Assembly: GCA_964434115.1 (NCBI GenBank)
Contig: CAYSSX010000011.1
Span: 3,605-67,604 of the forward strand
DNA length: 64,000 nucleotides
Direction: 5' to 3'
Source: an uncultured bacterium
Lineage (GTDB): Bacteria; Omnitrophota; Omnitrophia; Omnitrophales; Aquincolibacteriaceae
A program made the position numbers and the translations under genes. Shown here piece after piece: positions 27,837-49,479 of the stretch (the stretch's first letter is position 1; each line of letters opens with the position of its first letter). A model generated the notes under the pieces. It was not told the DNA's origin. It ran no database searches and saw only the letters and a program-made list of their open reading frames with translations.

Positions 27837-29581
27837 TTTTCGTTTACCGATCTCTGAAGCAGGCTTTCCAGCTGGCCGGCAAGAGGCAGTGCCCCCAGCT
27901 GAAATAAAATTTCCTGTTCGGTTTTTGCCGAGGTCCTGTTGCCGGATTTTAGAAGTGCTACCGCGCGATTGAAATGAGACGAAGGGTTGAAGGGATCGTT
28001 GTCGACGGCCTTATTGTAAAAAAGAAGAGCCTCTCGGAGCTTTCCCTGAAGGAGGCAGACATTCGCAAGATTGTTGTAGCTGTGCCCAAGGAGATGCCTG
28101 TCGTCCGGAATCTTTTTGGCGTAGCCAATGGCCCGCTTGAAGCTCTTGGAAGCCATCAGGAAATTTTTTTGCTCACCGTACATCGCTCCGAGGTTGTTGT
28201 AAGTGGCAGCGTTTCGAGGGCTCAACTCAACGGCCCTTAAGCAGTAGGGAATGGCCCGCGAAAAGTTTTTCTCATCTTTCCAGGCGAGGCACAGCCGCGC
28301 ATAGCCGCGAGCCTTGGAAGGGGATTTTTGGATCACATCTTCCCAGATTGTAATTTCGCTTTTCCAGGCTTTATTTCTTTCGTAAGTCAAAACAGAAAAA
28401 ATAAGGACAATGACCCCTAAAGCGGCCAGCGCTTTTTGGGGTCCGCGCATAACCGCAAAAAAAGAATAAGTCAAAACCGCCGCAAAGCCTGCCATGGGAA
28501 GATAGAGACGGTGTTCAAAAATAACATCCCGGATAGGTAAAATTCCCGACTCCACACTCAATGAAACAAAGAACCAGAGCACGCCCCAAAAGAGCAGGCG
28601 GTGCCGCGAACGAATGCAAAAAGCGGCGGCCAGGATGGCGAGGATCAAACCCGCGGAGAGCAGGGGCGGCGCAGAAAAAAAGCTGTGAGAGACCGGGAAA
28701 TCGTAATCCAGGTTTTGGTTTGCAGGAAAAATAAGCAGACGAAGGTAGGTTCTGATGACGCTGAGCTGCGTTAAGAAGTAATCGGCTCCAAAGGCGGTGG
28801 GGTAACCGTAGTAAAAATGAGGACGGAGATAAAAGCCCAGTTTTCCCGAGGCTGCAACCGCGGCGGGGATCAGAAGAATCGCGGCGGCAAAAGGCACGAG
28901 ACCCAGGAGGCGCTTCTTCCGGGGGGTAGAGCCATCAAAGAAAAGCCATTCAGCGAGCAGGATCATCACGGGAAGCGTTGCCGAGATTTCTTTACTGAAG
29001 AGGGCCAACACCATGGCGAAAAGAGACAGAGCATAAAAAAGGCGGCGGCCGGAAAACCGGAAAGTAAGGTAGGAAACCACGCTTAAAAGATAGAGAAAGG
29101 TGGCTAGAACCGCAAACCGCTGCCAGATGTAAGTCACCGCTTGAGTTTGAATCGGATGACATAGAAATACCAGAGAAGCAGCCCAAGCTGCCCAAGCCCC
29201 TGAATTTTCAGGAATGCAGCCGCGCGCGCGCGGAGACGCTGAGAGAAGCTGAAACATTCGAAAAACCAGCAGCGAGGCGCCGACATGCAGCAAAAGATTC
29301 GTGAGGTGATAGCCCGCGACCGAAAGGCCGTGGATGCGAAAATTAAAGGCGAAAGTCAGAAAAGTGAAACAGCGGGTTACATTGTCACCTTCACAAGATT
29401 TGAAAAGCGGGTACGGGGGACGTAAAAAAGGATTGTCCCGGATGGAGCCGATACCGTCAAAGTGAAACCCCGAGTGGAAAGTGTTGGAATAAATTAAGAA
29501 ACCCAAAAAGAAGTTTAGAAAAAGGAGGCCTAAAGGAAAAAGGTGCTTCTGACGGACGTCCCGGGAAAGGCCTTTAGACAT
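27833..29581 (-). CDS. Polytopic membrane protein with C-terminal TPR repeats (DUF1736/PMT_2, TMTC-like GT-C glycosyltransferase family)
   Basis: 582 aa. About 10 predicted TM helices N-terminally, including a HLTNLLLH motif. The C-terminal ~200 aa contain TPR-like repeats (YNNLGAMYGEQKNF..., YNNLANVCLLQGKLREALLFYNKAVDNDPFN). Confidence 0.65.
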   Translation of the reverse strand: MSKGLSRDVRQKHLFPLGLLFLNFFLGFLIYSNTFHSGFHFDGIGSIRDNPFLRPPYPLFKSCEGDNVTRCFTFLTFAFNFRIHGLSVAGYHLTNLLLHVGASLLVFRMFQLLSASPRARGCIPENSGAWAAWAASLVFLCHPIQTQAVTYIWQRFAVLATFLYLLSVVSYLTFRFSGRRLFYALSLFAMVLALFSKEISATLPVMILLAEWLFFDGSTPRKKRLLGLVPFAAAILLIPAAVAASGKLGFYLRPHFYYGYPTAFGADYFLTQLSVIRTYLRLLIFPANQNLDYDFPVSHSFFSAPPLLSAGLILAILAAAFCIRSRHRLLFWGVLWFFVSLSVESGILPIRDVIFEHRLYLPMAGFAAVLTYSFFAVMRGPQKALAALGVIVLIFSVLTYERNKAWKSEITIWEDVIQKSPSKARGYARLCLAWKDEKNFSRAIPYCLRAVELSPRNAATYNNLGAMYGEQKNFLMASKSFKRAIGYAKKIPDDRHLLGHSYNNLANVCLLQGKLREALLFYNKAVDNDPFNPSSHFNRAVALLKSGNRTSAKTEQEILFQLGALPLAGQLESLLQRSVNEK

Positions 29582-30830
29582 AATGGATCTCAGGCAAAGG
29601 TTCGCGGGTTATTTTTTGATTTTTCCACTGAAGGGGAATGGCCAAGAGACCTTTTTTGACCGGAGAATTCTCCAGGGAAGCATGGAAAGCCTCTTGATCG
29701 TGGAGATTGAAAACAAGAGTTCGGGCACTTCCTTTTTCGATCCCCTGGAGACGGAGAAGGCGGGCGCGTATTTGATAAGTTCCAGAATTTAAAATCCCAG
29801 CCGGAAAAAAAACAGAGCAAAGAAAATGGCCGTGCCCGTCCGGGAGCATGCCTTGCGGAAGGGTCTCCCGATAGAGCAGAAGACCGTCAATGCGCTCCAA
29901 ACATATTTCCAGCGAAACGTTTAGGGAAGCATCGCGGACAAAGTACTCGATCTGAACCTGCATGGGCGAGCTCTTCGCGGGGCGGGGCTGATGATCCAGC
30001 AGGCGGAGCGCCGTGATCTGCGCGGGCGCGTCTGCGGTGAACGGAAAGGTTTCAAAAGTCCTTTCTGTGGAAAGGGAGTCGAGGTATGTGCGAATGACAT
30101 TTTTGATGGGGCCATAGGCCGCCAGACGGCCGCCATCCATCAAAAGCCCCTGCCCGCAATAACGCACAAGAGCGTTGATGTCATGGCTTACCAGCATCAC
30201 AGTTCTGCCTTCTCCCGTGATGAAATCCATCTGAGCCCGGCATTTTTTTTGAAACCCAAGATCGCCTACGGCGAAGACCTCGTCGACTAAAAGAATTTCG
30301 GATTCAAGATGCGACGCGATCGAAAAGGCCAGGCGCAGGTACATGCCCCAGGAATAGCGTTTGACGGGAGTGTTTATAAACATTTCCAGCTCTGAAAAAG
30401 CAATAATGGCCTCGAGCTTTCGCCGGATTTCCCGGCGCTTCATGCCGAGGATCGCCCCATGGAGATAAATATTGTCTAACCCTGAGAGCTCCGGATGAAA
30501 GCCCGCGCCGATCTCAAGAAGGCTCGCGGTGCGGCCGCGTAAAACAACCCTGCCTGAAGTCGGTTCCGTGATGCCGGATAAAATTCTGAGCAATGTTGAT
30601 TTCCCAGCCCCGTTATTTCCCAGGACGCCAACAACTTCTCCTCGTGAAATTTCAAAGGAAACATCCCGCAGCGCTTGCAAGGAGTCGAGGTGTGACGGGC
30701 CGACTCCAGCCTCCTTCCGCTTGAAAAAGTTTTTTGCCAGCCAGTTTCGGCCCGAGCGGATGAGGCCCGCTTCAGAGGGGAGGCGGTAAGCCTTGGATAG
30801 ATTTTCAGCCTGAATCATCGCCGCGGGCAT
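29574..30830 (-). CDS. wzt: Polysaccharide ABC exporter ATP-binding protein (Wzt/TagH-like), with a C-terminal glycan-binding domain
   Basis: Walker A GVLGNNGAGKST, a signature/LSGG-like region, and a ~170-aa C-terminal extension typical of Wzt. Confidence 0.8.
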   Translation of the reverse strand: MPAAMIQAENLSKAYRLPSEAGLIRSGRNWLAKNFFKRKEAGVGPSHLDSLQALRDVSFEISRGEVVGVLGNNGAGKSTLLRILSGITEPTSGRVVLRGRTASLLEIGAGFHPELSGLDNIYLHGAILGMKRREIRRKLEAIIAFSELEMFINTPVKRYSWGMYLRLAFSIASHLESEILLVDEVFAVGDLGFQKKCRAQMDFITGEGRTVMLVSHDINALVRYCGQGLLMDGGRLAAYGPIKNVIRTYLDSLSTERTFETFPFTADAPAQITALRLLDHQPRPAKSSPMQVQIEYFVRDASLNVSLEICLERIDGLLLYRETLPQGMLPDGHGHFLCSVFFPAGILNSGTYQIRARLLRLQGIEKGSARTLVFNLHDQEAFHASLENSPVKKGLLAIPLQWKNQKITREPLPEIHYV

Positions 30831-31691
30831 CTAGAGCGTATCCACGAAAGTTCGCTCGGCGCGTGAAAAAACCAGCGCTCCCGAAATCAGCACCGCGAAG
30901 GAGACCGCGACAGAGAGTGTCACATCCCATGAGGAAATACGGCCGGTCCCCAAGAAAAGAACACGCGAAAATTCGATAAGCGTGGCCATGGGGTTGAGCC
31001 CCGCCCAAGGGCGAAAATTTTCAGGGATGGATGAAACGGGATAAATCACAGGGGTTATAAACATCAAAAGATTAACAGCAAAATCGAGAATGTGCTGCAG
31101 ATCCCGGTGCTTCACCGTAAGCGAAGCCACCCACAAGCCCAGTCCGAGCGTGGTACTCATGAGTAAAAACAGGCAGGGAGGCAGGAGGAAAAAAAGCCGG
31201 AGATCAGGGGGCGCCGGCTCCCAGCCCCTGAAAAAAAAGAAGAAGGCATAAAAAGAACCAAAGACAAAGCCTTGGGCCGCGAGTGTAACAAGATTCGCAA
31301 GCAAAAGAGAAAGAGGAATTGTGAGCCGGGGAAAGTAGACCTTTCCTAAGAGCGAAGCGTTAGAAGTTAGAGAGCCGGCAATCCGCGTAAAGGTGTAGGA
31401 AAAATAACGCCAAAAGAGAAGACCGCAAAGATAGAACAAAATAGCCGGAGTGCCGCCCGTGGAAACCCCCAGAGTTTTGTTGAAAATAATGACAAAAACA
31501 GCTGCCGCCAAGACCGGCTGAACAAGAAACCACAAAGGCCCGAGAAGCGTCTGATGAAAAGCCGTGTGCAAATACCTGCGATAAAGGAAGTAAACAAGGT
31601 CTTTGTACTCAAACAATTCACGCCACTTGAGATTTAAGAGCCCCCGAGTAGGTTCGATAATACGCAGGTAACCGCCCTCACGATTCCGCAT
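30831..31691 (-). CDS. wzm: ABC-2 type polysaccharide exporter permease (Wzm-like). The start is probably the internal ATG at 31691, not the track's 31901.
   Basis: Six-TM ABC-2 profile beginning after MRNREGGYLRIIEPTRG. The longer track ORF would overlap the upstream gene by more than 200 nt. Confidence 0.7.
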   Translation of the reverse strand: MRNREGGYLRIIEPTRGLLNLKWRELFEYKDLVYFLYRRYLHTAFHQTLLGPLWFLVQPVLAAAVFVIIFNKTLGVSTGGTPAILFYLCGLLFWRYFSYTFTRIAGSLTSNASLLGKVYFPRLTIPLSLLLANLVTLAAQGFVFGSFYAFFFFFRGWEPAPPDLRLFFLLPPCLFLLMSTTLGLGLWVASLTVKHRDLQHILDFAVNLLMFITPVIYPVSSIPENFRPWAGLNPMATLIEFSRVLFLGTGRISSWDVTLSVAVSFAVLISGALVFSRAERTFVDTL

Positions 31692-32475
31692 GACAAAGAG
31701 TCCTTTCGGAAGGCTGGGCCAAGACACGATCCCTGACGAGTTCAAGCTGGGATATTTTGTTTTCAATCCCGCAGGTCCAGTTGGCATGATGTAAGACGAT
31801 GTCGCCGGGAACCCCCAGACGGTCTCCCTTGGCCCAAATTTTTTCAGTCTGGATTCCAGGACTGAAAAAGCTGGGCGGGAAATAGCGCAGACGAACTCCA
31901 TAAGAACTTCCTAGATGAGGCTTTAAAAAGAGCAAAAGAGACCGCATCGGCCCTTGCAGCCAAACAAAGCGGCTCAAAAATGAAACGATCTTCCAAAGAA
32001 TGCGAAGGGGCGCACGCGCTCTCCTAAACCACAGATCGTTGAGAGCTTCTTGGTCGTGTTTTTCAGGAAAAAGGGCCATTTCCATCTGTACGTCCCGCCA
32101 CAAGCGGATCGTTTTGGCATTGGACCGGCAGGCGAAGAATCCGGTTCCCAAGGTCCCCTGGGGAGAATCTTGCAAAACAGCAAGGTCGCAGCGGGCCATG
32201 AGGGTTAGAACCCAAGGCTCTGTTTTTCTGAAAAATTGGATATCGACATCTGAAAAGAGGAAAACTTCCCCCGGATTTTCGCGGAGGGCCCGAAGGATAA
32301 GAGAAACCTTTTTATGAATAGCACGATTCCAAGAGGAGTCCTTGTAATTTCCAGTCCCCGCTGAGGGGTCTGAATCCAGTTGAAGGAGGTAAGGGTCTTT
32401 GAGGCTGGGGAGAAACCATTGCTCGGCCAATGGCCGGTGAGAGACAGAACAAAGACAATAGAGCTTCAGCGGCAT
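31678..32475 (-). CDS. Putative nucleotide-diphospho-sugar transferase (Nucleotid_trans-like, DxD)
   Basis: 265 aa. The FLFSDVDIQFF DxD-type motif, and its placement inside the glycan cluster. Confidence 0.4.
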   Translation of the reverse strand: MPLKLYCLCSVSHRPLAEQWFLPSLKDPYLLQLDSDPSAGTGNYKDSSWNRAIHKKVSLILRALRENPGEVFLFSDVDIQFFRKTEPWVLTLMARCDLAVLQDSPQGTLGTGFFACRSNAKTIRLWRDVQMEMALFPEKHDQEALNDLWFRRARAPLRILWKIVSFLSRFVWLQGPMRSLLLFLKPHLGSSYGVRLRYFPPSFFSPGIQTEKIWAKGDRLGVPGDIVLHHANWTCGIENKISQLELVRDRVLAQPSERTLCHAES

Positions 32476-36445: not shown

Positions 36446-37444
36446 TTGAACAAACGCCTTCTCCTGTACCTTGCTGAAAATTACAACGGAGCACCCCCCG
36501 CATCAGAAGCCCCCTGCATTTCCTCGCACTGGCAGCAATGTCTTGAGCGGCTCAAAATCAAAACCGATGATGAAGGGAAAATTATTTTCCTGGCCGCCCG
36601 GGACACGGGGCTCGACACCTTTGAGCGGCGGGGTTTTTTAGATGCATTGACCGAGTTCCTAAACATGGCTATCCATTGGCTGCGGCTTCCCAGAAAAAAA
36701 GAACTGTTAAAGCTCTCCGCGAAGGCGCTTTCAGTTTGCCGGGCGATGAAACGCCCTTTTAACTTCGACGTTTTCCGCCAGCTGTACTGTCTGGCAGTCA
36801 TTAAGGAAAACTTTGGCGTTCAGGGGGCCCCCGAGCTTTGCCGGAATGTGCTCATGGTGGGGGACGGCTACGGGATTCTTTCCGCGGTTTTCAAAGAGGT
36901 TTTTCCAGAAAGCCGTTTGGTTCTGGTCGATCTCGGGAAAACACTATTGCTTCAGGCGGCCTATTGCCAGCTCGCGCACCCAGGGAAAAAGCACAGGCTT
37001 TTTAACGAAGTTGACGCGTCGAGCAGCGACTTCGTGTACTGCCCGGCCGAGTTTTTGGAGAAACTCGAAGGGCTCCGGTTCGATTTAGCAGTTAATATCG
37101 TTTCGATGCATGAGATGAATGCCGGGAGCATCCGCCGCTACTTTGATTTTTTCCGGAAAAATATGAACGAGAGAAATCTGTTTTATTGCTGTAACCGGGA
37201 GTACAAGCAGCTCAAAGGAGGCGAGAAGACGCTCTTTTCTGATTATCCGTGGCACCCGGAAGACAAAATATTTTTTGATGAACCATGTCCGTGGCATCAG
37301 GTTTTTCTCTCCAGAAGGTCAGGCCGAAGCCCGGGCTTGGGCGGGTTTAGATTCCTCCCCCGGCTGAACTATTATCACAGCGAATCAAAAGGGTATGGGA
37401 GGATAAGGCACCGTCTTTGTGTCTTGGGGGTGGAGACACCTTGA
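36446..37444 (+). CDS. Putative class-I SAM-dependent methyltransferase (sugar O-methyltransferase-like)
   Basis: Motif I-like VLMVGDGYGILSAVF followed by LVLVDLGKTLL and DLAVNIVSMHEMN (motif IV-like). Confidence 0.45.
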   Translation: MNKRLLLYLAENYNGAPPASEAPCISSHWQQCLERLKIKTDDEGKIIFLAARDTGLDTFERRGFLDALTEFLNMAIHWLRLPRKKELLKLSAKALSVCRAMKRPFNFDVFRQLYCLAVIKENFGVQGAPELCRNVLMVGDGYGILSAVFKEVFPESRLVLVDLGKTLLLQAAYCQLAHPGKKHRLFNEVDASSSDFVYCPAEFLEKLEGLRFDLAVNIVSMHEMNAGSIRRYFDFFRKNMNERNLFYCCNREYKQLKGGEKTLFSDYPWHPEDKIFFDEPCPWHQVFLSRRSGRSPGLGGFRFLPRLNYYHSESKGYGRIRHRLCVLGVETP

Positions 37445-37461: not shown

Positions 37462-38022
37462 TTAACGGGGTTTTTTCGGGAACACGCGAACAGCGATGTC
37501 CTTCGGAGCCTTTGCTAAAAAGCAGATTGTTTTTTTTAAGAAACCTGGCAGCCGGACCCTGCCGTTGTTCAATTCCCGAAGCCTTTTAAAAATAACATGA
37601 AGAGTCCATTCCGCGAGCGATAAAAAGCCAATCAGGCGCGACGAAAGCCTTGATCCGGCCGACGAAAAATTCACGGACTTTTTATCTCTTCGCGCCCCCT
37701 GCACAATGCCCACAAGGCTCTCCTTAAAAAATGGAGGATCCGCGACCCAGGCGTTGTCCGGCTTTGCAATCATTCCGAACTTTTCGCCGATGGGCTTTCG
37801 ATACAGAAAACGGTGAACCCAGCGATGCCCGCGCGCCGTATAGACAACAATGTCTCCCAGCCGAAGGTCCTGTGCTGAGACAGGCCGGACAAGAATTAAA
37901 TCTTCATCTTGGAGCACAGGGAACATGCATTGCCCCTTATAAATGAACCGCACAAGACCCTCGCGGGTTTCGACAGTATTAATAAGCCGCAGAGCTTCTT
38001 CCTTAATGGGGGTATCAGCCAT
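37462..38022 (-). CDS. Soluble S24/S26-type (signal-peptidase-I / LexA-like) peptidase homologue, in which the Ser/Lys dyad positions carry Cys and His
   Basis: 186 aa. KGQCMFPVLQDEDLILV aligns with SPase-I box B (G-D-S-M-x-P-T-L..GD.L.V). LGDIVVY aligns with box C (RGDIVV). RWVHRFLYRKPIGE aligns with box D (V-K-R-vIGlPGD). So S becomes C and K becomes H. There is no N-terminal TM anchor. Confidence 0.55.
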   Translation of the reverse strand: MADTPIKEEALRLINTVETREGLVRFIYKGQCMFPVLQDEDLILVRPVSAQDLRLGDIVVYTARGHRWVHRFLYRKPIGEKFGMIAKPDNAWVADPPFFKESLVGIVQGARRDKKSVNFSSAGSRLSSRLIGFLSLAEWTLHVIFKRLRELNNGRVRLPGFLKKTICFLAKAPKDIAVRVFPKKPR

Positions 38023-38087: not shown

Positions 38088-38438
38088 TTGAACCCTGTGG
38101 CCCGAGGGAAACGGCTGTTACCAAACCGGAACAATCCGTTGACCCCCGAAATGTGCAGAGCTAAACTGGTCTTAATGCAAATCCTTGTCGATAAAGAAGT
38201 TGTTTGCTGGAGTAAGCTGGGAGACGAAACGCTCCTGCTGAACCTTGATACAGGCTATTATTACACGCTCGATGAGCTGGGCGGCTTGATCTGGGAGATG
38301 CTGATCGAGCAGCATGATCAGGAAAAGATCGTAGAACGGATTGTCTCCGAGTACGAAGCCGAAAGAAAGTCTGTGGAAAGTGACTTGAAAACTCTTCTGG
38401 AAGAACTTCAGAGAGAGGGTATGATTGTCATTAAGTAG
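38088..38438 (+). CDS. PqqD-family protein (RiPP recognition element-like). Start uncertain among TTG 38088, GTG 38097 and ATG 38175.
   Basis: The C-terminal 88 aa, MQILVDKEVVCWSKLGDETLLLNLDTGYYYTLDELGGLIWEMLIEQHDQEKIVERIVSEYEAERKSVESDLKTLLEELQREGMIVIK, fit the PqqD/RRE pattern (..vL.N..TG.yy.LN..g..IWe.l..........l...Y.v......Dv..fl..L...GLi). It is paralogous to the gene at 48091. Confidence 0.8.
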   Translation: MNPVARGKRLLPNRNNPLTPEMCRAKLVLMQILVDKEVVCWSKLGDETLLLNLDTGYYYTLDELGGLIWEMLIEQHDQEKIVERIVSEYEAERKSVESDLKTLLEELQREGMIVIK

Positions 38439-38449: not shown

Positions 38450-38563
38450 GTGGAAAACGCAGAGAAACAGGAAAAGCCCGAAAGCAATGGAAAGAAGAAG
38501 CTTTATAAGAAGCCGGCCATAAAAAAATATGAACGGCTCTATGAACCCGGAATCGGATCTTAA
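38450..38563 (+). CDS. Unannotated 37-aa basic peptide, a candidate precursor/substrate peptide of the adjacent modification system
   Basis: GTG at 38450, preceded by GGGAGG (38438-38443) with a 6-nt spacer. Translation: (M)ENAEKQEKPESNGKKKLYKKPAIKKYERLYEPGIGS, stop TAA at 38561-38563. It starts 12 nt after the PqqD stop. It is homologous to the peptide at 47852 through a shared Y-x-K-P-A-(I/L)-x-K motif. Confidence 0.6.
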   Translation: MENAEKQEKPESNGKKKLYKKPAIKKYERLYEPGIGS

Positions 38564-38598: not shown

Positions 38599-40422
38599 AT
38601 GAAACCCTCTATGCCCTTCCCCCGCGTCAGTTGTATTGTTCCTGTCTTCAATGGAGAGAAGTATTTGTCCGAAACCATCGAAAGCATTCTTGGCCAAACC
38701 TACTCAAACATTGAAACTATCGTTATTGATGACGGCTCCACGGACGGCACCGCCGAAGTTTTAAAGCAGTACACTGGACGGGTCCGGGCGTTTAAACAAA
38801 ACCATTCAGGGCCTTCTGCGGCCCGGAATTTGGGCATTGAAAAATCATCGGGAGAACTCATCGCGTTTCTTGATGCGGACGATCTGTGGGCACCCGAAAA
38901 AATTCAGCAGCAAGTCGAACATCTTCAAGCTCACGCAGAACTTGATGTGTGTTTTACACAGGCCAGGAATTTTTGGATTCCCGAATTAGAGCATGAAAAA
39001 AAGAGGCTTGAGGAAGAAGGGCTCGTAAAATTTATCCACCCCTTTTTGGTCTGCACCTTCTTGGGCAGAAGAGAGATTTTTGACAAAGTCGGGATGTTTA
39101 AGCCGGAGCTTGTGATTGGCGAAGATAGTGATTTTTTTTGCCGGATGAAAGACGCGGGAATTCAAAGCGGTGTTATTTCGAAAAATTTAGTTTTCAGAAG
39201 ACTGCATGAGAGCAACCTCACCCGGAACATGTCGCTGTTCACCCGTGTGGAGCTTCAGCAGAGAGCCGCAGAGGCTCTGGGGAGGTATCGGCAAAAAGAA
39301 GCGGAGGCATCCTGCTCAGAGCAGCCCGGCAAGGCAGAAGGAAAGCCTTCGAGCCGGAAAGATGCCGATATTTTTTTTGAAGCTTTAAGCAAGGTCTATA
39401 CTCGCGCACGAAACAGCCGCGCCGGTGCAGCGGATTTTTATTATTCCATCGCCGGACATACCGTAAAACTTTGTTTTGCCGGGCCGGCACTTATTTCCCT
39501 GATGACCCCGGCACTTGAACATCTCCGAGTCAAGACACAGGAGCGCGCGGAGCTGACAATCGGCCTCTGTGATTTTGATTCTAATGACGTGGTAATGCCG
39601 GAGGTTCCTTGTACCTTTAAGGATTATACGGCGCGCCGGAAAACGACAGAATTTAATGATGATGAATACCTCCGGGCAGACTATCAAGAAAGAGCTCAAA
39701 AGCTCCACGTTCTCCACGCACAAAAAGACGAAGCCTTCTTTTTTGTAAAAAACAGCGCCTCCGTTCTCCAGGCTGATCAAGGCGCCCCGCTTGCCAAAAT
39801 TTTCCGCTGGTGGATGCGAAAAAAGGGGATCCAGCTTGTTCATGGCGGAGTTGTTGGAATGAATGGCACCGGAATTTTGCTGGCCGGAAAAGGGGGTTCG
39901 GGAAAATCGACTACAGCGCTCACCTGCCTGGCCGGAGGCATGGACTACCTAAGTGATGACTATTGCCTTGTCGAGTCCAAGCCGGTACCGGCCGCCTACA
40001 GTTTATATTGCAGCGGTAAAGTGCAGTCCAATAACCTTGACCTTGTGCCCGGGCTTTCGAAGTTAAGCAGTAAGGGCCGCCCGGATCAGGAGTCAGGGAA
40101 AACCCTTTTCTTTGTTCAGGAGCTGTTTCCTGAAAGAATAACCCGGCAACTTCTTCTTAAAGCGATTCTTATTCCCGTGATCGAAGCGCGCCCGCAAAGT
40201 GAACTTATAGGAGCATCGGCTGTCGCGGCGCTTCAGGCCTTGGCCCCGAGCACTCTGTTTCAGCTTCCCGGGTCAAAAAATAAGGACTTTTATGAGCTGG
40301 TTAAGATTGTAGAATCTCTTCCCTGTTATGTTTTCCGGGTCGGAAGCGACCCCGGGGAAGCAACGAGAATCATCCGCGAATTTTTAACCTCTCAAACGCC
40401 GGAAGCGAAGAACAAGGCTTAG
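38599..40422 (+). CDS. Bifunctional-looking protein: N-terminal GT2 glycosyltransferase fused to a C-terminal HPr-kinase-like P-loop kinase domain
   Basis: N-terminus: VSCIVPVFNGEKYLSETIESILGQTYSNIETIVIDDGSTDGT...LDADD (GT-A fold, DxD). C-terminus: LVHGGVVGMNGTGILLAGKGGSGKSTTALTCLAGGMDYLSDDYCLVE, which aligns with the HprK core (lHG..v...G.GvLi.G.SG.GKSe.AL.L...Gh.LvaDD). Confidence 0.7.
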   Translation: MKPSMPFPRVSCIVPVFNGEKYLSETIESILGQTYSNIETIVIDDGSTDGTAEVLKQYTGRVRAFKQNHSGPSAARNLGIEKSSGELIAFLDADDLWAPEKIQQQVEHLQAHAELDVCFTQARNFWIPELEHEKKRLEEEGLVKFIHPFLVCTFLGRREIFDKVGMFKPELVIGEDSDFFCRMKDAGIQSGVISKNLVFRRLHESNLTRNMSLFTRVELQQRAAEALGRYRQKEAEASCSEQPGKAEGKPSSRKDADIFFEALSKVYTRARNSRAGAADFYYSIAGHTVKLCFAGPALISLMTPALEHLRVKTQERAELTIGLCDFDSNDVVMPEVPCTFKDYTARRKTTEFNDDEYLRADYQERAQKLHVLHAQKDEAFFFVKNSASVLQADQGAPLAKIFRWWMRKKGIQLVHGGVVGMNGTGILLAGKGGSGKSTTALTCLAGGMDYLSDDYCLVESKPVPAAYSLYCSGKVQSNNLDLVPGLSKLSSKGRPDQESGKTLFFVQELFPERITRQLLLKAILIPVIEARPQSELIGASAVAALQALAPSTLFQLPGSKNKDFYELVKIVESLPCYVFRVGSDPGEATRIIREFLTSQTPEAKNKA

Positions 40423-40490: not shown

Positions 40491-41672
40491 ATGAACTCAG
40501 CAGATAAAAAAGAGCACTCTAAAGAAATACTGTTTATTCTCGAATGCCTTCAGTCGCTTATCCAAAACCGGGCGCCTGAGATAGACTCCCGGCGGATCAC
40601 CGGCCTCGACTGGAATCAGCTCCTCCGATTGGCCCGCGAGCAAAGGGTTCTGGGGCTTTTCGGGCATGTCCTCGAGAAGGGCGGGGCATTTCCTTTGGTT
40701 CCCGTGACGGTAAAAGAGGAAATCGAAAAAGGTGTTCATGAATACAACCAGGGCCTGCTGATCAAAAAGTGGCAATTTGGGTCCATTCACCGTTTATGCC
40801 GCGAGCAGAACCTCGAAATCATTCCTTATAAAGGCGCCGCCCTTGCGCTCACCGTTTTTAAAGACCTGCCTTTTCGCCGCATGAGCGATATTGATATTTT
40901 TATCCGTGAAAGCGATGCTGCGCGCATTTATCCGCTTTTTTTTAAGCAAGGCTTCGCAAGACTTGAAACGCCTTACCCTAACCGATGGCAGGCAGAGATT
41001 CTTCGGGGTGCTTATGCCGCCCCGTCAGGAAGAGAGTCCCTTTTTAAGCAAGGGTGGGACATTGATATTCATAGGCAAGCGAGATATCACATTGAAAAAG
41101 ATATCGTTTCGCTGGATATGCAGGACGTTTGGTCCAGAGCAAAGCCCAGGGCCACGGAGCTTGGAGAGGTCCTTTTTCTCGATGATATTGATCATACCCT
41201 GCTTTTGCTTTTTCACGCGATCGATCTTTTTGCCCCGCATTTCAGCCAGATTGTGGATACCGCCCTGCTGATGAAAAGCTCCGCGATTCGTAAAGAGGAT
41301 CTGATAGCAAGGCTCCCCGGAAACCTCGGCCCGGAGGCCAGTGCTTTTTTAGAAACCGCCAGCGATGCTATCGAAGAGTTTCTAGCGCCTCAGAAAAGGA
41401 GCGGAAATTTTTCAGAAGCAACGATCCGTTTTTTTGATTTGTTTTTTTACAAACGCAAGAGGACCTACGAAGAGCCGTTATCCAGCTCCGGCTGGAAGCG
41501 CCTTGCCAAAAGCCTAAAAGCCATACGGAGCGTTCGCGAGAAGGTGGTGTTTATCGCGGGATTTTTTGTGCCGGATCCAGAATACTACAAAAAGCAAGGC
41601 AAGAGCGGCCTCAGCAGTTACCTTCACCACTGGGGACAGCTGAGCTCGCGTATTTTGAAATCATTTAATTGA
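40491..41672 (+). CDS. Nucleotidyltransferase-family protein (PF14907-like 'uncharacterised nucleotidyltransferase')
   Basis: 393 aa. IPYKGAALALTVFKDLPFRRMSDIDIFI is the nucleotidyltransferase-fold G[SA]...D.D motif. This family is seen in lasso-peptide and other RiPP neighbourhoods. Confidence 0.55.
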   Translation: MNSADKKEHSKEILFILECLQSLIQNRAPEIDSRRITGLDWNQLLRLAREQRVLGLFGHVLEKGGAFPLVPVTVKEEIEKGVHEYNQGLLIKKWQFGSIHRLCREQNLEIIPYKGAALALTVFKDLPFRRMSDIDIFIRESDAARIYPLFFKQGFARLETPYPNRWQAEILRGAYAAPSGRESLFKQGWDIDIHRQARYHIEKDIVSLDMQDVWSRAKPRATELGEVLFLDDIDHTLLLLFHAIDLFAPHFSQIVDTALLMKSSAIRKEDLIARLPGNLGPEASAFLETASDAIEEFLAPQKRSGNFSEATIRFFDLFFYKRKRTYEEPLSSSGWKRLAKSLKAIRSVREKVVFIAGFFVPDPEYYKKQGKSGLSSYLHHWGQLSSRILKSFN

Positions 41673-41682: not shown

Positions 41683-42624
41683 ATGATGCGTCAACAGCTG
41701 CATTTTTTGGATATTACAATTGAACTCACCGGGGCCGCCGATTCAAATTCGCGGACTCTGCTGAAAGAGCTTCAAGGGTATGGCTCAACAGCAATCCGCA
41801 AAGATGTCTCAGGAACACTGAGCATCAAAAAGGCCGCAAACTTCAGAATTCCTAAACAAGCCTGCCTGAAAGGCTTTTGGAGATCTTCGGGACTTCGGCA
41901 CTATGCCGAAACGACAACTCATTTTTGGGTTCAAGGAAAATCAGCGATTGTCAGTAATCTGCATACCCGCGGCGTTGAAATTCATTTGGGCGATAACCCT
42001 TCTGCCGAATTTATTGCCGCGGCTAGAAACGCGATCAAGTGGCTGATCATCAAGGCTGCGGAAAAATCAGGTTATGGATATGCCCATGCGGCAGCCGCTT
42101 ATTTCCGCGGGCGGAGTATTCTTCTGCCTGGAAATCCGGGCGCCGGAAAGTCCTCCTTTGTGATGCGCCTGATGAAAGCCGGAGCCGTGGTCCTTAACGA
42201 TGATGTAACCCTGATTCATCTGGGTTCTGGCCGTATGATCCCGCTGGCCCTGAACCTTCACGTTAAAGGGGATTTTTCTAAACGGTTCAATGTTTCGCCG
42301 CGCGAGCGCTGGGCATGGTTTCGCGATGAGGCGGTAAAAGAAGCCGAAAAGGTCAAAGGGGTGGATGTTATTTTATTTCCACAGGTATGGGCAGCGTCCG
42401 AGAGCCGTGTCAAAAAACTATCGCCCGAAGAAACGGAAATACGGCTGGATGGTATTTACCTGAAAGAGATGTCCTGGAACGCTTTTCCTGCTCCATCGCA
42501 AAGAATGAAATCAGCTCACCGGAAAATGATCAAGAATGCGGACAGCTATGTTTTTTACTGCGGAACACACGAAGCAAAAATCCAGAAGCGGCTGGAGAAT
42601 TTTTTGAAAAAATATGAAGAATAA
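41683..42624 (+). CDS. HPr-kinase-like (HprK-related) P-loop kinase
   Basis: YAHAAAAYFRGRSILLPGNPGAGKSSFVMRLMKAGAVVLNDDVTLI, i.e. P-loop followed by a DD motif as in the HprK C-terminal domain. Confidence 0.6.
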   Translation: MMRQQLHFLDITIELTGAADSNSRTLLKELQGYGSTAIRKDVSGTLSIKKAANFRIPKQACLKGFWRSSGLRHYAETTTHFWVQGKSAIVSNLHTRGVEIHLGDNPSAEFIAAARNAIKWLIIKAAEKSGYGYAHAAAAYFRGRSILLPGNPGAGKSSFVMRLMKAGAVVLNDDVTLIHLGSGRMIPLALNLHVKGDFSKRFNVSPRERWAWFRDEAVKEAEKVKGVDVILFPQVWAASESRVKKLSPEETEIRLDGIYLKEMSWNAFPAPSQRMKSAHRKMIKNADSYVFYCGTHEAKIQKRLENFLKKYEE

Positions 42625-43537
42625 TCAGCGTCCTTTTTTTGTTTTTCAAGGAAAGATGCGTGTTGAGGTCCTCTCAGACAGAGCTGCCGCCAGTCAGTTA
42701 AAACGGCACCAAGACGCCGGGCGGGAGGAGAGGACTTTGCTGGCCGGCCGCCTTAAAATCTATAAAGTGAGAAGGTTCACGCCGCTCAACCACCGGGCGC
42801 TGCGCGCTCACTGCAACGGTCAAACCCGCAGGGAAGAGTATGCAAAGTCCGGGACCCACACCTACTTGGCGCCCACTTTTCAAATCCGCCTCGACAAGCG
42901 GAAGAGAAGCTGCCGCGTCGAATACTTGAAATGGGACTCCCGCCTGCTTCATGAAGTCCGGCTCCTGATACGCTGGATTATGAAATCAGCGCATCTCGAT
43001 CAGGGGTGTGTTTATTTTCCGGGCATTCTGCTGGGCTCTGACGACGGTGGCGGGGTCGCTTTTACGGGGCAGCAGGAGTGTGGGATTTTGGATGCTTTGC
43101 CGCGCGTTTCAGCTTTTGGGAGGGGCCGGCCCGGCAGTTATGGTTTTATCATGAATCCGAAGTCAAAACAGATCACAGCGCTGCCTTTTCCGGGAGTCTG
43201 CAAATATGAGAGCTCCCGGGTCTATGCTGAGGCCTTGGAAAAAACAAAACAGAAGGAGGGGGAAAAGAGCCCCCGCTTCTCCAGGAGGATTGTTTTTGTC
43301 CAATCCTGGAACCGGCCGGACTCTCACCTGGGAAGTCTTTCCAGGCGTGAAGGAGTTCTAAAACTGGATGAGCTGAACCGGAGAGCTTACGAGTATTTTT
43401 TCCCCAGTCAAAGAGAGCGTCTTTTGGAGCGCTACCAAGGCATGCGGCAGCTCAGGTTTTTTCAGCTCAATCTCGGAACAGATTCCGTGAAAGCCGCAAC
43501 GCTGCTTTCACGCTTTCTGAGGGAAGGGAAAAAGTGA
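42614..43537 (+). CDS. Hypothetical protein
   Basis: 307-aa ORF translationally coupled to its neighbours (ATGA overlap). No motifs recognised. Confidence 0.4.
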   Translation: MKNNQRPFFVFQGKMRVEVLSDRAAASQLKRHQDAGREERTLLAGRLKIYKVRRFTPLNHRALRAHCNGQTRREEYAKSGTHTYLAPTFQIRLDKRKRSCRVEYLKWDSRLLHEVRLLIRWIMKSAHLDQGCVYFPGILLGSDDGGGVAFTGQQECGILDALPRVSAFGRGRPGSYGFIMNPKSKQITALPFPGVCKYESSRVYAEALEKTKQKEGEKSPRFSRRIVFVQSWNRPDSHLGSLSRREGVLKLDELNRRAYEYFFPSQRERLLERYQGMRQLRFFQLNLGTDSVKAATLLSRFLREGKK

Positions 43538-45713: not shown

Positions 45714-46781
45714 TTAAATCGGCTCACCGGGCGAAGGAATGTTTTCTAAAAGCCCTTTTAAGGCACGCCGCTGAACAGCGCTCAAGCGCACCCCCTCAAA
45801 GATTTTTGCAGCACGCGCCAATTCAAAGTAACCTTCCTTGCTCTTTTGGGAAAAATTGAAACCGTTTCCCGTGCTGTACTTTACCGCAAGCATGGCGCGG
45901 AACGACTTTGGCTCCCGGTATTGTTTGTGGAGCGCGTTGGCATCAAAAAGGATCACGGTTCCTTTAGGTCCTACACAGTTTACAACCGGGTATTTTGACC
46001 GCACGTAAGCATCAGAATAGAGGGAATCGCTTAAACTCAAGGGAACCCTCCAGGGCCTGTGAGAGCCCTTCGCGATAAGCATGCGGACACTGCTTTCCGT
46101 GACGTCATTTAAAAAGACCAGCATCTTGAGGGTGTTAACGTTATCGCTATGCCATTCGGTTACGATTTCCTCTTCAGGGGGGGATGACGGAGCGCTTAAA
46201 GTGTTGACCACGGTAATCACCGGAAGATCCTGGACAAAGGGCTGATAGCCAAAAATTTGCCCGAGGGCCGAAAGAATCGTTTCATGGAGGGCTATTTTTG
46301 AAAAGGCTTCATCCAAAAGACTTAGGTAGCGAACCGTTAATTCTTTGACGGGTTGGTTTTTGTTCGGGACCGCAGAATAACGGTCGGCAAGTCCGTGAAT
46401 TTGATTTTGAAAATAGCCGGGCAGGATGACGAACCCATCGGATTTAAAGGAGTGTACCCAGGAGCTTATTTCTTGGTTTCGCTGAATATCAGAGGGAAGA
46501 TTTTCTGATAAGCGAAATGATTGCGGAAGGGGAAAAATCTGCCCGTGGGATAGTTTCAGCAGAAACCTTTCCGGGCGCAATAGGTTCTTTATGATAAGCA
46601 GTCCCGGGGAATCTGACCCGATGCGTTTTTCGCAGTAAAGATCCGGAGCGTTTTTTACAAGGCTGCGAGTCATCCAAGCCAGGAAGCCGCTGGTTAAACT
46701 CTTCCAGCCTCGCCGCCACAAGCGGGGCTGATGGTTAGCGATGAACCGGTACGTGTTTGCCATTTTTTTACTAAGCCGCAT
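45714..46781 (-). CDS. Putative PhyH-family Fe(II)/2-oxoglutarate-dependent dioxygenase
   Basis: 355 aa. A TEWHSDNV (H-x-D) motif and a later His-containing segment. The assignment is tentative. Confidence 0.35.
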   Translation of the reverse strand: MRLSKKMANTYRFIANHQPRLWRRGWKSLTSGFLAWMTRSLVKNAPDLYCEKRIGSDSPGLLIIKNLLRPERFLLKLSHGQIFPLPQSFRLSENLPSDIQRNQEISSWVHSFKSDGFVILPGYFQNQIHGLADRYSAVPNKNQPVKELTVRYLSLLDEAFSKIALHETILSALGQIFGYQPFVQDLPVITVVNTLSAPSSPPEEEIVTEWHSDNVNTLKMLVFLNDVTESSVRMLIAKGSHRPWRVPLSLSDSLYSDAYVRSKYPVVNCVGPKGTVILFDANALHKQYREPKSFRAMLAVKYSTGNGFNFSQKSKEGYFELARAAKIFEGVRLSAVQRRALKGLLENIPSPGEPI

Positions 46782-46798: not shown

Positions 46799-47755
46799 TT
46801 AAAGGATAAAGTCATAAGCGCCCAGCCACTGGAAGACTTTGGCGCCAAACCCGCTGTAAAATCGAAATAATCCGTCGCCTCTTCCGGGCGATGAGGAGTC
46901 GGCAGCTGGACGCTGAACACCCCAAAGATCCAAAACGGAGCAGCCCGTCTTTTTTCCGAACAGCATGGCCTGCCACATCAAAGCATAGTTGACCATCGCG
47001 TTTTTATAAACCCGGCTTGAGGCGCCATGAGGAAAGTATAGCCGGTCACCCGCCTTGAAAAGCATCATGACCGCCGCCGTTTCTCCCCGGTAGGTCGCTT
47101 TAAGCAGGTGAAGCATTCCTGTGGGTTTCATGATCTTCCAAAACAAACGCAGGGTTTCTGGTGAATGAGGGTAGGCAATCCCCGCACGAACCACAGTGAC
47201 GTTGAAAAAAAGATGCAGAAACTCCTCAAAGCATTGGTCTGAGTTATCCCGGGTTACCGCGACACCCTTTCTTTCCGCGAGCCGGATATTGTAGCGGGTC
47301 TTAGAGTGCATTTTTCCAAGCAAAGCTGGATCCGGCCCTTCCAGCGAAATAAGCAGTGTGTGCTGAGGATAAACACCTCGCGAATTCAAGCCCCCCTGGG
47401 AATGAATTTTTCTTTCGATCGATCGCTTTTCGGCTTTATCAGTTGAAGTCATAGGGTAAAGCCATCCGTAGCAGGGCTCGATTTTGAGCGAAATACAGGC
47501 GTGCTTTTTCGCGATCGTCTTTAGATAGGAAATCTGTCTGCGGCCGGGAAGCGGAGCTCTTGGAACATAGGCGAGGTTGTGATTCCGGACCACGCTTTTT
47601 TGGATGATAGCCTGGACCCCGAAGCTGGGCCCGGGATCTTCTTTCAAGCGGTGCCGAATGACTTTGAACCCCAGCCTGTGACAGTAACGGCCCCATTCGT
47701 AGGTTTGGAGGGGATGAGAAACACCTTTATTGAATTGGGCCGGGGTCACGTTCAT
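46799..47755 (-). CDS. FemAB-family (FemXAB-like, GNAT-fold) aminoacyl/peptidyl transferase homologue
   Basis: 318 aa. HLLKATYRGETAAVMMLFKAGDRLYFPHGASS...KNAMVNYALMWQAMLFGKKTGCSVLDLWGV matches the FemABX C-terminal lobe pattern (...yyl.Gas....k....yll.weai.wake.G....D..G). Confidence 0.55.
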   Translation of the reverse strand: MNVTPAQFNKGVSHPLQTYEWGRYCHRLGFKVIRHRLKEDPGPSFGVQAIIQKSVVRNHNLAYVPRAPLPGRRQISYLKTIAKKHACISLKIEPCYGWLYPMTSTDKAEKRSIERKIHSQGGLNSRGVYPQHTLLISLEGPDPALLGKMHSKTRYNIRLAERKGVAVTRDNSDQCFEEFLHLFFNVTVVRAGIAYPHSPETLRLFWKIMKPTGMLHLLKATYRGETAAVMMLFKAGDRLYFPHGASSRVYKNAMVNYALMWQAMLFGKKTGCSVLDLWGVQRPAADSSSPGRGDGLFRFYSGFGAKVFQWLGAYDFIL

Positions 47756-47851: not shown

Positions 47852-47998
47852 GTGGCAAAAAAAAAATCACAATCTCCCAAGCCTAAGACTAAGCTAGCAC
47901 CGCCGAAAGGCAGGCAAAAGAGAAAACCCTATCAAAAGCCTGCGCTTGAAAAACATAGCGAAGTTCAGTTGTGGGCGTTTGGGACCATGGGCGGGTGA
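47852..47998 (+). CDS. Unannotated 48-aa basic peptide, paralogue of the 38450 peptide and candidate precursor/substrate peptide
   Basis: GTG at 47852 with AAAGGA ~8 nt upstream. Translation: (M)AKKKSQSPKPKTKLAPPKGRQKRKPYQKPALEKHSEVQLWAFGTMGG, stop TGA at 47996-47998. RKPYQKPALEKHSEV aligns with KKLYKKPAIKKYERL of the first peptide at the protein level, but with different codons. Confidence 0.6.
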   Translation: MAKKKSQSPKPKTKLAPPKGRQKRKPYQKPALEKHSEVQLWAFGTMGG

Positions 47999-48090: not shown

Positions 48091-48375
48091 ATGTATAAGA
48101 TCGATCAAAAGGCCGTTGTCTGGAAAAAAACGGAATCCGAAGTGGTGCTCCTTAATCTAAGCACCGGACACTACTACACACTCAATGCGGCAGGCCTTGT
48201 GTTGTGGGACGGAGTTCTTAAAAAGCTTTCACCCGAGAAGATCGCTCGAAAACTGGAATCAGAGTTCGAGGTGGAATACAAAACCGCCTTTAAGGACACG
48301 CTCGAATGTCTTGATCAGCTGACCCAAGAGGGAATCATCACGAGACCGCCTACGCCTTCAACTAAAAAGAAATAA
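48091..48375 (+). CDS. PqqD-family protein (second RRE-like paralogue)
   Basis: 94 aa. MYKIDQKAVVWKKTESEVVLLNLSTGHYYTLNAAGLVLWDGVL...LESEFEVEYKTAFKDTLECLDQLTQEGII is the PqqD pattern. It starts 92 nt after the peptide gene. Confidence 0.8.
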   Translation: MYKIDQKAVVWKKTESEVVLLNLSTGHYYTLNAAGLVLWDGVLKKLSPEKIARKLESEFEVEYKTAFKDTLECLDQLTQEGIITRPPTPSTKKK

Positions 48376-48393: not shown

Positions 48394-49479
48394 ATGGTGG
48401 ATATCGTCATCGTCACTTATAATGCGCGGTCCGAGCTCATGAAATGCCTTGAGTCGGTCCGGCGTTATACGCCCGCTTCAATGTATAAATTATATGTTGT
48501 TAATAATGCCAGCAGCGACGGCACCCGCCAATATCTTGATCAAACCCGCCTTGTGAATGGTCAGTTTTTTCATCTTCCCCGGAACCTTGGGTTCTCGGGT
48601 GCAGCCAATTGGATAATCCCAAAGCTAAAATCGGCAGACGTAGTTTTTTTGGATGACGACGCCAGGGCCACCCCAGGCTGGCTTTCCGGGCTTGTCCGTT
48701 CGGTGAAAAAATCAAAAAAAACCGGCATGGTGGGCTGCAAGATTATTTATCCAGACAAAAAAATTTTTTCGTGCGAGGTTCGGTTTGGGCCGAGAAGAAT
48801 CTTATTTTTTAAAGACAGGGACCTGGGGCAGGCCGACTACGTTAAAGAAGTGGATGCTCTGGCGGGTGCCTGCTTTCTTGTCCCGCGAAAGATTTTGAAA
48901 AAAATAGGCCCCTTTGACGAAAGTTTCTTTCCCTGTCAGGGAGAAGACTGGGATTATTGTCTTCGAATCCGGAAAGCCGGCTATAAAATTATCTACAATG
49001 GCAAAGTAAGTATTATTCACAGTAATCTTTTCCGTGCGGGCGGCGAAAAAGTAAATAAAGAAAACAAAACCCGGTTCTATGAAAAGTGGAATGCGTATCT
49101 TGCTAAGCACTTTCCGCGCAAAGACAGCCACTTTGCAGACAGACTTATGTCGAAAGCGATTGCCGCGCTTGAGGCCGGCGACAGCGAAAGGGCCTTAAAG
49201 ATCTCCGGCAAGCTGGCCAAGAGCCGCCCCGAACTTGTTGAGCTGTGGGTTCCCGCGCTTGCCTATATAAGACTTCAAAATTTCAAGAAAGCCTTACCGA
49301 AGTTAAAAGAAATTATAAAAAGGAATCCGGATAACTATTCCGCACGGAGTTACCTTACCCTCTGTTTGCGCAGCCTGGGGATGAAGGGCGAAGCGGAGGC
49401 GTACACGGAGAAGATGCTTGCCTGCGTCACAAAGAACATAGACAAAAAAAGAGCCGCCGTTTCAAGGGGCAAACCTTGA
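48394..49479 (+). CDS. GT2 glycosyltransferase with a C-terminal TPR-like helical domain (SunS-like architecture)
   Basis: N-terminus: MVDIVIVTYNARSELMKCLESV...NNASSDGT...VVFLDDDA (GT-A fold, DxD). C-terminal ~110 aa have TPR-like repeats (AIAALEAGDSERALKISGKLAKSRPELVELW...LQNFKKALPKLKEIIKRNPDNYSARSYL). Confidence 0.7.
   Translation: MVDIVIVTYNARSELMKCLESVRRYTPASMYKLYVVNNASSDGTRQYLDQTRLVNGQFFHLPRNLGFSGAANWIIPKLKSADVVFLDDDARATPGWLSGLVRSVKKSKKTGMVGCKIIYPDKKIFSCEVRFGPRRILFFKDRDLGQADYVKEVDALAGACFLVPRKILKKIGPFDESFFPCQGEDWDYCLRIRKAGYKIIYNGKVSIIHSNLFRAGGEKVNKENKTRFYEKWNAYLAKHFPRKDSHFADRLMSKAIAALEAGDSERALKISGKLAKSRPELVELWVPALAYIRLQNFKKALPKLKEIIKRNPDNYSARSYLTLCLRSLGMKGEAEAYTEKMLACVTKNIDKKRAAVSRGKP

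Follow-up and report, generated by a model that had tools for sequence, protein, structure and literature searches.

A conserved cysteine at the nucleophile position of a candidate RiPP leader peptidase of the Ser-His-Asp signal-peptidase branch

The 64,000-nucleotide stretch of DNA analysed here (the window; contig CAYSSX010000011.1 of assembly GCA_964434115.1, from an uncultured, Omnitrophota-like bacterium) contains a gene for a 186-residue peptidase homologue that carries a cysteine, Cys32, at the position of the nucleophilic serine in signal peptidases of the endoplasmic reticulum (ER) and of archaea. The protein is a homologue of LppS, the leader peptidase of the linear polyphosphorylated peptides (LPPs), a recently described group of ribosomally synthesized peptides with post-translational modifications (RiPPs), and its gene lies in a cassette with PqqD-type RiPP recognition elements (RREs) and short candidate precursor genes. 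We consider it likely that the encoded protein, an LppS homologue on the fold of ER/archaeal-type signal peptidases, faces the cytoplasm and acts as the leader peptidase in an LPP-like RiPP pathway. The leader-peptidase reading is well supported, and the family itself was already published in 2026; the new part is a conserved and recurrent Cys-for-Ser variant, found here outside the Bacillota and in an LPP-like cassette that is divergent and has minimal precursors.

Active site of the peptidase

From three short motifs of the protein, GQCMFPVL (residues 30-37), LGDIVVY (55-61) and WVHRFL (68-73), an earlier note on this DNA had proposed homology to the S24/S26 peptidases and a box-for-box match to signal peptidase I. 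Both proposals were borne out by Pfam, with a match to Peptidase_S24 (E=1.9e-5; 24.8 bits, the gathering score being 23.3), by NCBIfam, whose best model is archaeal-type signal peptidase I (TIGR02228, E=4.3e-10, under the curated cut-off), and by a profile built from 105 family members, which together place the protein in clan SF. As a single sequence, the peptidase gave no match to PDB sequences at E<=10 in a phmmer search, and human SEC11A was reached by the family profile only, at E=6e-14, together with SEC11C at E=1e-13. The same 105-member profile matched bacterial P-type signal peptidases with E values of 2e-5 to 4e-4 and LexA at about 0.06.

Relatives were collected by an exhaustive HMMER scan, which returned 2069 cluster representatives at E<=1e-3, and by a word-indexed protein search, which returned two. 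Columns were scored on the query and the top 150 of the 2069 representatives (151 sequences). In this alignment Met33, Arg71 and Asp89 are invariant, Pro35, Gly56, Asp57, Asp95 and Gly105 exceed 90%, Lys87 reaches about 85%, and the column of His70 holds His in 149 members. The ER/archaeal type is recognizable in the family pattern, [S/C]-M-x-P ... G-D ... H-R ... K-G-D-N ... D. When the profile is aligned to SEC11A, Cys32, His70, Arg71, Asp89 and Asp95 fall on Ser56, His96, Arg97, Asp116 and Asp122, respectively; in the structure of the human signal peptidase complex, Ser56, His96 and Asp122 of SEC11A make up the catalytic triad, and Asp116 and Arg97 form a salt bridge.

Judged by these correspondences, the peptidase is a member of the Ser-His-Asp branch (ER/archaeal type, Sec11/SipW) and not a doubly substituted Ser/Lys enzyme. 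Because this branch works with Ser-His-Asp, the alignment marks His70 as ordinary and Cys32 as the sole departure from the rule of the branch, and the active site is expected to comprise a Cys32/His70/Asp95 triad with a structural Arg71-Asp89 pair. With the ER/archaeal-type signal peptidases I (MEROPS S26B, comprising SEC11A/C, archaeal Sec11 and B. subtilis SipW), the protein shares its fold, the boxes x-M-x-P, GD, HR and K-x-D-N...D, a His general base, the triad Asp and the Arg-Asp salt bridge. It differs from them in having Cys as nucleophile instead of Ser, in having no N-terminal transmembrane anchor, and in its presumed substrate, an RRE-bound RiPP leader rather than a Sec signal peptide.

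P-type signal peptidase I (S26A, LepB) and LexA/UmuD (S24), in contrast, use a Ser-Lys dyad, and it is at the position of this Lys that the family has its His. The earlier note was thus right to put Cys and His at the nucleophile and general-base positions, the family His sitting on the Lys of the P-type enzyme 4nv4 (vHRllk against YVKRIIG). Its description of an atypical change from Lys to His does not hold, because His is the rule throughout the Sec11/SipW/LppS branch, and the Cys/His dyad that it envisaged gives way to an expected triad, as Asp95 aligns with Asp122 of SEC11A and with Asp93 of LppS.

Homology to LppS

LPPs are RiPPs described by Popov et al. (Nat Commun 2026; PMC13381572). 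Their clusters have a conserved core of an SpI peptidase (LppS), a discrete RRE (LppB), an HprK-like kinase (LppK), a nucleotidyltransferase (NTP transferase; LppN) and an MsbA-like pump, often lie inside capsule loci and mostly occur without lasso genes; they were described as restricted to Bacillota (PMC13381572). The core residue Ser3 is polyphosphorylated by LppK, and deletion of lppS abolishes removal of the leader after Thr-1. LppS cleaves only with LppB present, needs Phe-Glu-Thr (FET) at positions -3 to -1, and is inactive as the S29A, H68A or D93A mutant; the leader consensus is YxxPxVLxHQxIxFETxxS, and in an AlphaFold 3 model the N-terminal helix of LppS abuts the RRE-leader sheet (PMC13381572).

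We compared the peptidase with LppS of Paenibacillus alginolyticus (WP_029196374.1), taking the sequence from Supplementary Data 1 of PMC13381572. The two align by BLASTP at E=4e-12, with 22% identity over 125 residues, and Cys32, His70, Asp89 and Asp95 are paired with Ser29, His68, Asp87 and Asp93; the family profile matches LppS with an hhalign probability of 99.4% (E=3.9e-21). The triad spacing is alike, 29/68/93 in LppS and 32/70/95 here, and each is a small protein that has an N-terminal helix in place of a membrane anchor. They differ in the nucleophile, Ser29 in LppS versus Cys32, and in length, the peptidase being 35 residues longer and having a second C-terminal helix. Homology to a leader peptidase with experimentally shown RRE dependence gives good support to the suggestion, made in the earlier note, that the protein is a candidate leader peptidase. 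With the same publication, an RRE-linked peptidase on an S26 scaffold has ceased to be new (PMC13381572).

Cysteine as a maintained variant

Cys32 is not a sequencing or assembly error, because three separate metagenome contigs carry a gene for the identical protein and because a 65%-identical homologue, which also adjoins a divergent PqqD gene, keeps the cysteine. Within residues 28-36, no Ser or Thr is available to stand in for the nucleophile. Of the 151 aligned sequences, 107 have Ser and 30 have Cys in the Cys32 column, and the remaining 14, gene calls that start at Met33, show a gap; Cys thus accounts for 30 of the 137 scoreable sequences. A wider set of 164 sequences, biased by the manner of its collection, has Ser in 112 and Cys in 52, together with His in 163, Asp89 in 164 and Asp95 in 155. 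In both sets the nucleophile column is only ever Ser or Cys, with no Ala, Gly or other residue. Members with Cys retain His, Arg71 and Asp89 at 100% and Asp95 at 92%.

The two states are mixed among the nearest relatives, with Cys in the query, P0002-P0005, P0007-P0009 and P0013, and Ser in P0006 and P0010-P0012. On a rough neighbour-joining tree, Fitch parsimony requires at least about 11 switches between Ser and Cys. Where the DNA was in hand, the nucleophile codon is AGT in Ser-type members and TGC or TGT in Cys-type members, AGT and TGT being one base apart. Cysteine also characterizes a second, larger clade with the motifs GHCMKP ... KAHRFL ... TKSDRR, which includes Candidatus Electrothrix proteins. 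Such a pattern fits two interchangeable nucleophiles and is unlike decay: cysteine appears to be maintained, since the members that have it keep the His, the Arg-Asp pair and the triad Asp, and since the column is limited to Ser and Cys.

The same data bear on the possibility that the protein is an inactive pseudo-peptidase, in which the change from Ser to Cys has killed hydrolysis and which serves as a scaffold or chaperone binding the RRE-leader complex. The canonical nucleophile is indeed missing, and non-catalytic signal-peptidase homologues exist, S. pyogenes SipA being among our fold matches. We regard this as improbable, because loss of the remaining catalytic residues would be expected in a dead site, whereas they are kept in the Cys members, because substitutions other than Ser and Cys are never seen in the column, and because a profile search of all window open reading frames (ORFs) found this one peptidase of the family and no second that could perform the cleavage. 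The earlier note had taken normal residues in relatives as a sign of artefact or degeneration. Most relatives do carry Ser, but decay is not implied, with Cys in a fifth to a third of the family and its partner residues retained.

We found no paper on a natural Cys nucleophile in a signal-peptidase fold, within a literature coverage that was incomplete. The engineered 'thiol' leader peptidase S90C of E. coli LepB, from work of the Dalbey laboratory in the 1990s, reportedly keeps activity. It resembles the present protein in placing a Cys nucleophile in a clan-SF signal peptidase, but was made in the laboratory from a Ser-Lys P-type enzyme, whereas the cysteine described here is natural, conserved and set on the Ser-His-Asp type. 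Supplementary Data 1 of PMC13381572 contains 199 SpI sequences, 94 of them with SMYP. Searching these for twelve C-M-x-P variants gave two members, Thiolapillus brandeum WP_082030566.1 (GHCMAP, RRE-adjacent) and Paenibacillus kobensis WP_127529584.1 (GNCMHP); both are singleton clusters (18 and 28) in the sequence similarity network and are undiscussed in that paper.

Fold and topology

An AlphaFold2 model computed from the 105-sequence alignment reached a mean predicted local distance difference test score (pLDDT) of 93.3 and a predicted template-modelling score (pTM) of 0.86. In the model, an N-terminal amphipathic helix (residues 5-21) precedes the beta core (24-118), which is followed by two helices on the C-terminal side (122-151 and 160-180). 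A Foldseek search of the PDB with this model returned LexA C-terminal domains at the top, followed by SEC11A/C, SpsB, SipA and UmuD'; the fold is that of clan SF.

Hydropathy agrees with the earlier statement that the protein lacks a membrane anchor, as far as the N-terminal side is concerned. In none of the 151 members (the query and its 150 relatives) does any 19-residue stretch before the nucleophile exceed 1.6 on the Kyte-Doolittle scale; the query has a maximum of 0.33 in this region and an overall maximum of 1.14, in the first C-terminal helix. Because no anchor precedes the nucleophile, the catalytic domain should face the cytoplasm.

Gene neighbourhood and candidate precursors

The peptidase gene is divergent from that of a PqqD-type RRE (RRE 1), as the earlier note had recognized, and is followed on the other side of this RRE by a candidate precursor and a set of modification genes (Table 1). 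The ORF of RRE 1 is open from 38088, and its likely start is the ATG at 38175, judged from 87-residue orthologues. RRE 1 is 30% identical to LppB (E=5e-9), and among NCBIfam models it matches the lasso PqqD chaperone best (E=9.5e-17, below cut-off). A second RRE/precursor module lies about 10 kb beyond the first. Three HprK-like P-loop proteins occur in the window, with E values of 2.3e-6, 1.8e-5 and, for HprK_rel_A, 4.8e-10.

Like an LPP cluster, the window combines a discrete PqqD-type RRE, HprK-like proteins, an NTP transferase, YxxP precursors and a polysaccharide locus, without a lasso cyclase. Unlike LPP clusters, it has one HprK-like domain fused to a family 2 glycosyltransferase (GT2), its precursors are only 37-48 residues long, end at or three residues past the Ser/Thr that matches LPP S3 and have no FET cleavage motif, and its host is Omnitrophota-like rather than a member of the Bacillota (PMC13381572). 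The fusion of GT2 and HprK suggests that phosphorylation of the peptide is coupled to its glycosylation. A FemAB-type aminoacyl transferase beside short precursors might extend the peptide, or a sugar, by further residues, and the two ORFs without database matches (about 307-344 residues), one in each module, may be a conserved partner.

Table 1. Features of the cassette and its surroundings, with positions in the window.
Feature	Position	Strand	Evidence and remarks
NanM-like putative sugar O-methyltransferase	36446-37444	plus	NCBIfam TIGR04371, E=2.9e-18
LppS-like, ER/archaeal-type (S26B-like) peptidase, 186 residues	37462-38022	minus	ORF from ATG to TAA; Pfam/NCBIfam, profile, BLASTP, hhalign, AlphaFold2, Foldseek
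Asp95 codon, GAT	37738-37740	minus	predicted third triad member; aligns with SEC11A Asp122 and LppS Asp93
Asp89 codon, GAC	37756-37758	minus	read from the sequence; partner of Arg71 in the predicted structural pair
His70 codon, CAC	37813-37815	minus	general-base position; aligns with SEC11A His96, LppS His68 and the Lys of P-type signal peptidases
Cys32 codon, TGC	37927-37929	minus	nucleophile position; aligns with SEC11A Ser56 and LppS Ser29
PqqD-type RRE 1 (LppB-like)	38175-38438	plus	Pfam PqqD, E=4e-16; divergent from the peptidase
Candidate precursor peptide A, 37 residues, MENAEKQEKPESNGKKKLYKKPAIKKYERLYEPGIGS	38450-38563	plus	ORF; YxxPxI, C-terminal Ser at Y+18
GT2 glycosyltransferase and HprK/ScmC-like P-loop fusion	38599-40422	plus	Glycos_transf_2, E=6e-37; Hpr_kinase_C, E=2.3e-6, below cut-off; PF27840 ScmC
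NTP_transf_5 nucleotidyltransferase	40491-41672	plus	Pfam, E=8e-30; LppN counterpart by family name only
HprK-related P-loop protein, LppK-like candidate kinase	41683-42624	plus	HprK_rel_A, E=4.8e-10, below cut-off; Hpr_kinase_C, E=0.011
ORF without Pfam/NCBIfam match	42614-43537	plus	follows and overlaps the end of the HprK-like gene, first module
Weak PhyH-like dioxygenase match	45714-46781	minus	between the two RRE modules
FemAB-family protein	46799-47755	minus	Pfam, E=6.7e-16; between the two RRE modules
Candidate precursor peptide B, 48 residues, ...RKPYQKPALEKHSEVQLWAFGTMGG	47852-47998	plus	ORF; YxxPxL, Thr at Y+18, register by eye against peptide A and LppA
PqqD-type RRE 2, paralogue of RRE 1	48091-48375	plus	Pfam PqqD, E=1.7e-13; 38% identity to RRE 1, E=6e-21
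Second modification module: GT2-TPR, sulfotransferase, HprK-like (50534-51517), no-match protein	48394-52484	plus	Pfam
ORF without Pfam/NCBIfam match	51450-52484	plus	follows and overlaps the end of the HprK-like gene, second module

Six candidate precursors were identified, two in the window and four at the related loci L093, L095 and L009 (see below). At L093 the orthologous 37-residue peptide, ...KKPYEKPILKKFERLYEPGFGT, is encoded at 5484-5597 (-); L095 has ...KKAYKKPVVKKYDRIYEPGLGS at 5451-5564 (-) and ...KKVYKKPAVKKYDRIYEPGLGT at 5285-5446 (-), and L009 has ...KKPYRKPVLKKYTQVLKVTLGT at 176-265. Peptide A is also called as a gene on another contig (L002). All six contain Y-x-x-P-x-[ILV]. 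Exactly at Y+18, in register with Ser3 of LPPs, each has Ser or Thr, and five of the peptides end on this residue. The C-terminus is near-invariant, Y-x-K-P-x-[ILV]-KK-[YF]-[ED]-R-[LI]-YEPG-[ILF]-G-[ST]-stop. By register alone, cleavage of peptide A would fall after Gly34 and leave I-G-S.

The lasso peptidase B2, which works with the RRE B1, follows the same logic, in that a PqqD-type RRE reads a YxxPxL leader and hands it over to a peptidase of Cys-His-Asp type. B2 is a transglutaminase-fold Cys protease, unrelated to the clan-SF fold here, and so an analogue and not a homologue. Among the window ORFs scanned there is neither an Asn-synthetase-like (lasso) cyclase nor a transglutaminase-like B2, and a lasso-peptide cluster was rejected on the absence of both.

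The window also holds parB, parA, mnmG/gidA, yidC, dnaA, dnaN, gyrB and gyrA (4881-19461), a replication-origin neighbourhood, and the presence of dnaA, dnaN, gyrB, gyrA and parAB makes the locus chromosomal. After the gyrA region, serS and two tRNA-Ser genes were found at 19476-21048. The seryl-tRNA synthetase, the single marker behind the Omnitrophota-like placement, is closest to a metagenome-assembled genome (MAG; 70%) and to MAGs of Candidatus Omnitrophota (57-59%), which sets the host outside the Bacillota. Among the scanned ORFs of at least 150 residues, the only ABC transporters, at 29574-31901 and 53958-55657, are of the ABC-2 type. The second of these was considered as a member of the cluster and rejected, with tRNA-Arg, a tadA-like deaminase and tRNA-Ser lying in between. 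Just downstream of tRNA-Ser(gga) (53514-53603) and upstream of an ABC transporter, a 138-bp unit occurs in tandem in two copies that are 97-98% identical (53653-53920); it was found by a repeat search, and Tandem Repeats Finder was silent on it.

Related loci

A locus search with the family alignment found no related locus in species-representative genomes, and a metagenome scan gave four loci; in all, 11 other loci with family members were examined. A PqqD domain is near the peptidase or fused to it in 9 of the 11. Other common neighbours are ScmC/HprK-like, NTP_transf_5, radical SAM, GT2 and ABC transporter genes and ORFs of 29-74 residues. Two Cys-type loci, L093 and L095, share the order of the window: peptidase, divergent 87-residue PqqD protein, one or two 37-residue peptides, and GT2-HprK fusion. 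At L093 a methyltransferase gene lies on the other side of the peptidase, and this ORF (6555-7628) looks homologous by eye to the methyltransferase of the window. The GT2-HprK/ScmC fusion is conserved directly 3' of the precursor gene in all three, at 38599-40422 (+) in the window, 3659-5434 (-) in L093 and 3457-5235 (-) in L095.

The Ser-type relatives L005 and L009 have the same gene set as the second module of the window, namely GT2-TPR, sulfotransferase, HprK-like and no-match protein. In both, a GT2 domain is fused to a PqqD domain instead of HprK. A further Ser-type member, P0185 (L008, 8001-8720), combines an N-terminal peptidase and a C-terminal PqqD RRE in one polypeptide. P0157 and P0170 have the peptidase with a C-terminal GNAT acetyltransferase domain.

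The large Cys-type clade with the GHCMKP...KAHRFL...TKSDRR motifs is represented by L007 (Candidatus Electrothrix communis CP130629.1), L006, L010 and L011, whose cassettes contain varying mixes of NTP_transf_5, ABC transporter, radical SAM, PqqD and ScmC-like genes. Their precursors are 61-74 residues long and have a Y-x-[KR]-P leader, with a Cys-rich core of the CSDMASS type in three of the four and another Cys-rich core in L006. These four loci look like a different, uncharacterized RiPP class that uses the same peptidase.

Discussion

In the mechanism that we propose by analogy with LppS, the PqqD-type RRE would bind the YxxPx[I/L] motif in the leaders of the 37- and 48-residue precursors and dock on the N-terminal helix of the peptidase, presenting the leader-core junction to the active site. 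Cys32, activated by His70, which in turn is oriented by Asp95, would attack the scissile bond and give a thioester acyl-enzyme, not the usual ester, in a site held together by the buried Arg71-Asp89 salt bridge. The HprK-like and glycosyltransferase enzymes probably modify the Ser/Thr at Y+18 before cleavage, comparable to the action of LppK on S3 of LPPs.

Several points weigh against a leader peptidase of this kind. Identity to LppS is just 22%, and the main text of the LPP paper names cysteine for the lasso B2 peptidase only, never as an LppS-type nucleophile (PMC13381572). All HprK-like matches in the window are under curated cut-offs, and the scanned window ORFs of at least 150 residues include no MsbA-like exporter. 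With respect to topology, peripheral or tail-anchored membrane association of the peptidase may occur, given that a C-terminal helix exceeds 1.6 on the Kyte-Doolittle scale in 44 of 151 relatives and that LppS is poorly soluble (PMC13381572). Lastly, the FET residues, the cleavage determinants of LppS, and the HQ of the LPP leader are not conserved in the precursors here, and the core would be just three residues if the register holds, which is odd for a RiPP.

Missing FET residues in peptides A and B and an unusual three-residue core would equally suit an active peptidase with another target, which degrades spent leaders or processes another protein of the cluster. We give this little credence: the linkage of the family to RREs and short YxxP ORFs is tight and repeated, one relative is itself fused to an RRE, and LppS works on the RRE-bound precursor (PMC13381572).

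It is likewise unlikely, in our view, that the thioester is used for transfer, the Cys-types being transpeptidases or ligases that join the cleaved peptide to an amino sugar or to another peptide in a polysaccharide-related pathway. Several natural peptide transpeptidases have Cys nucleophiles, the locus is rich in glycosyltransferases and has a FemAB-like gene, and the core predicted from the register is very short. Against this, Ser and Cys swap among close relatives in the same cassette type, with Ser in L005 and L009 and Cys in the window, L093 and L095, which argues for the same reaction in both types, and LppS is a plain hydrolase (PMC13381572).

A housekeeping signal peptidase of the SipW/Sec11 type or a self-cleaving regulator like LexA/UmuD, to which the Pfam family Peptidase_S24 and the LexA domains heading the Foldseek list might point, is very improbable and was rejected, as no member has an anchor before the nucleophile, the protein lacks a DNA-binding domain, its general base is His and not the Lys of S24, the profile scores SEC11A far above LexA, and the gene is located in a RiPP-type cassette.

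A wider reading can also be considered, though we hold it to be possible rather than likely: the Cys-His-Asp enzymes of clan SF may be a natural, recurrently evolved lineage of thiol peptidases, which in the clade of the query would process the strictly conserved 37-residue precursors. The product would be a tiny phospho- or glyco-tripeptide, or a disposable primer for a glycan or polyphosphate on the C-terminal Ser/Thr. Relocation of the enzyme to the reducing cytoplasm may have made a Cys nucleophile tolerable. If true, this would add a new catalytic type to clan SF, which has so far been described as serine peptidases only. With Cys32 as the working nucleophile, the LexA/signal-peptidase fold would, like the chymotrypsin fold, be one that runs with either Ser or Cys. 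Many databases would then mis-type such proteins as serine 'signal peptidase I', and a thiol class would be needed in the choice of inhibitors, in active-site probes and in annotation rules for RiPP leader peptidases. A 37-residue peptide, an 87-residue RRE and a 186-residue peptidase make a compact test system.

LPP-like cassettes, with an RRE, HprK-like protein, NTP transferase and SpI-like peptidase, reach beyond the Bacillota, into an Omnitrophota-like organism, cable bacteria and several metagenomic lineages. There they pair with glycosyltransferase, sulfotransferase or radical SAM partners and with unusually minimal precursors, and the LPP discovery of 2026 thereby becomes broader and more varied.

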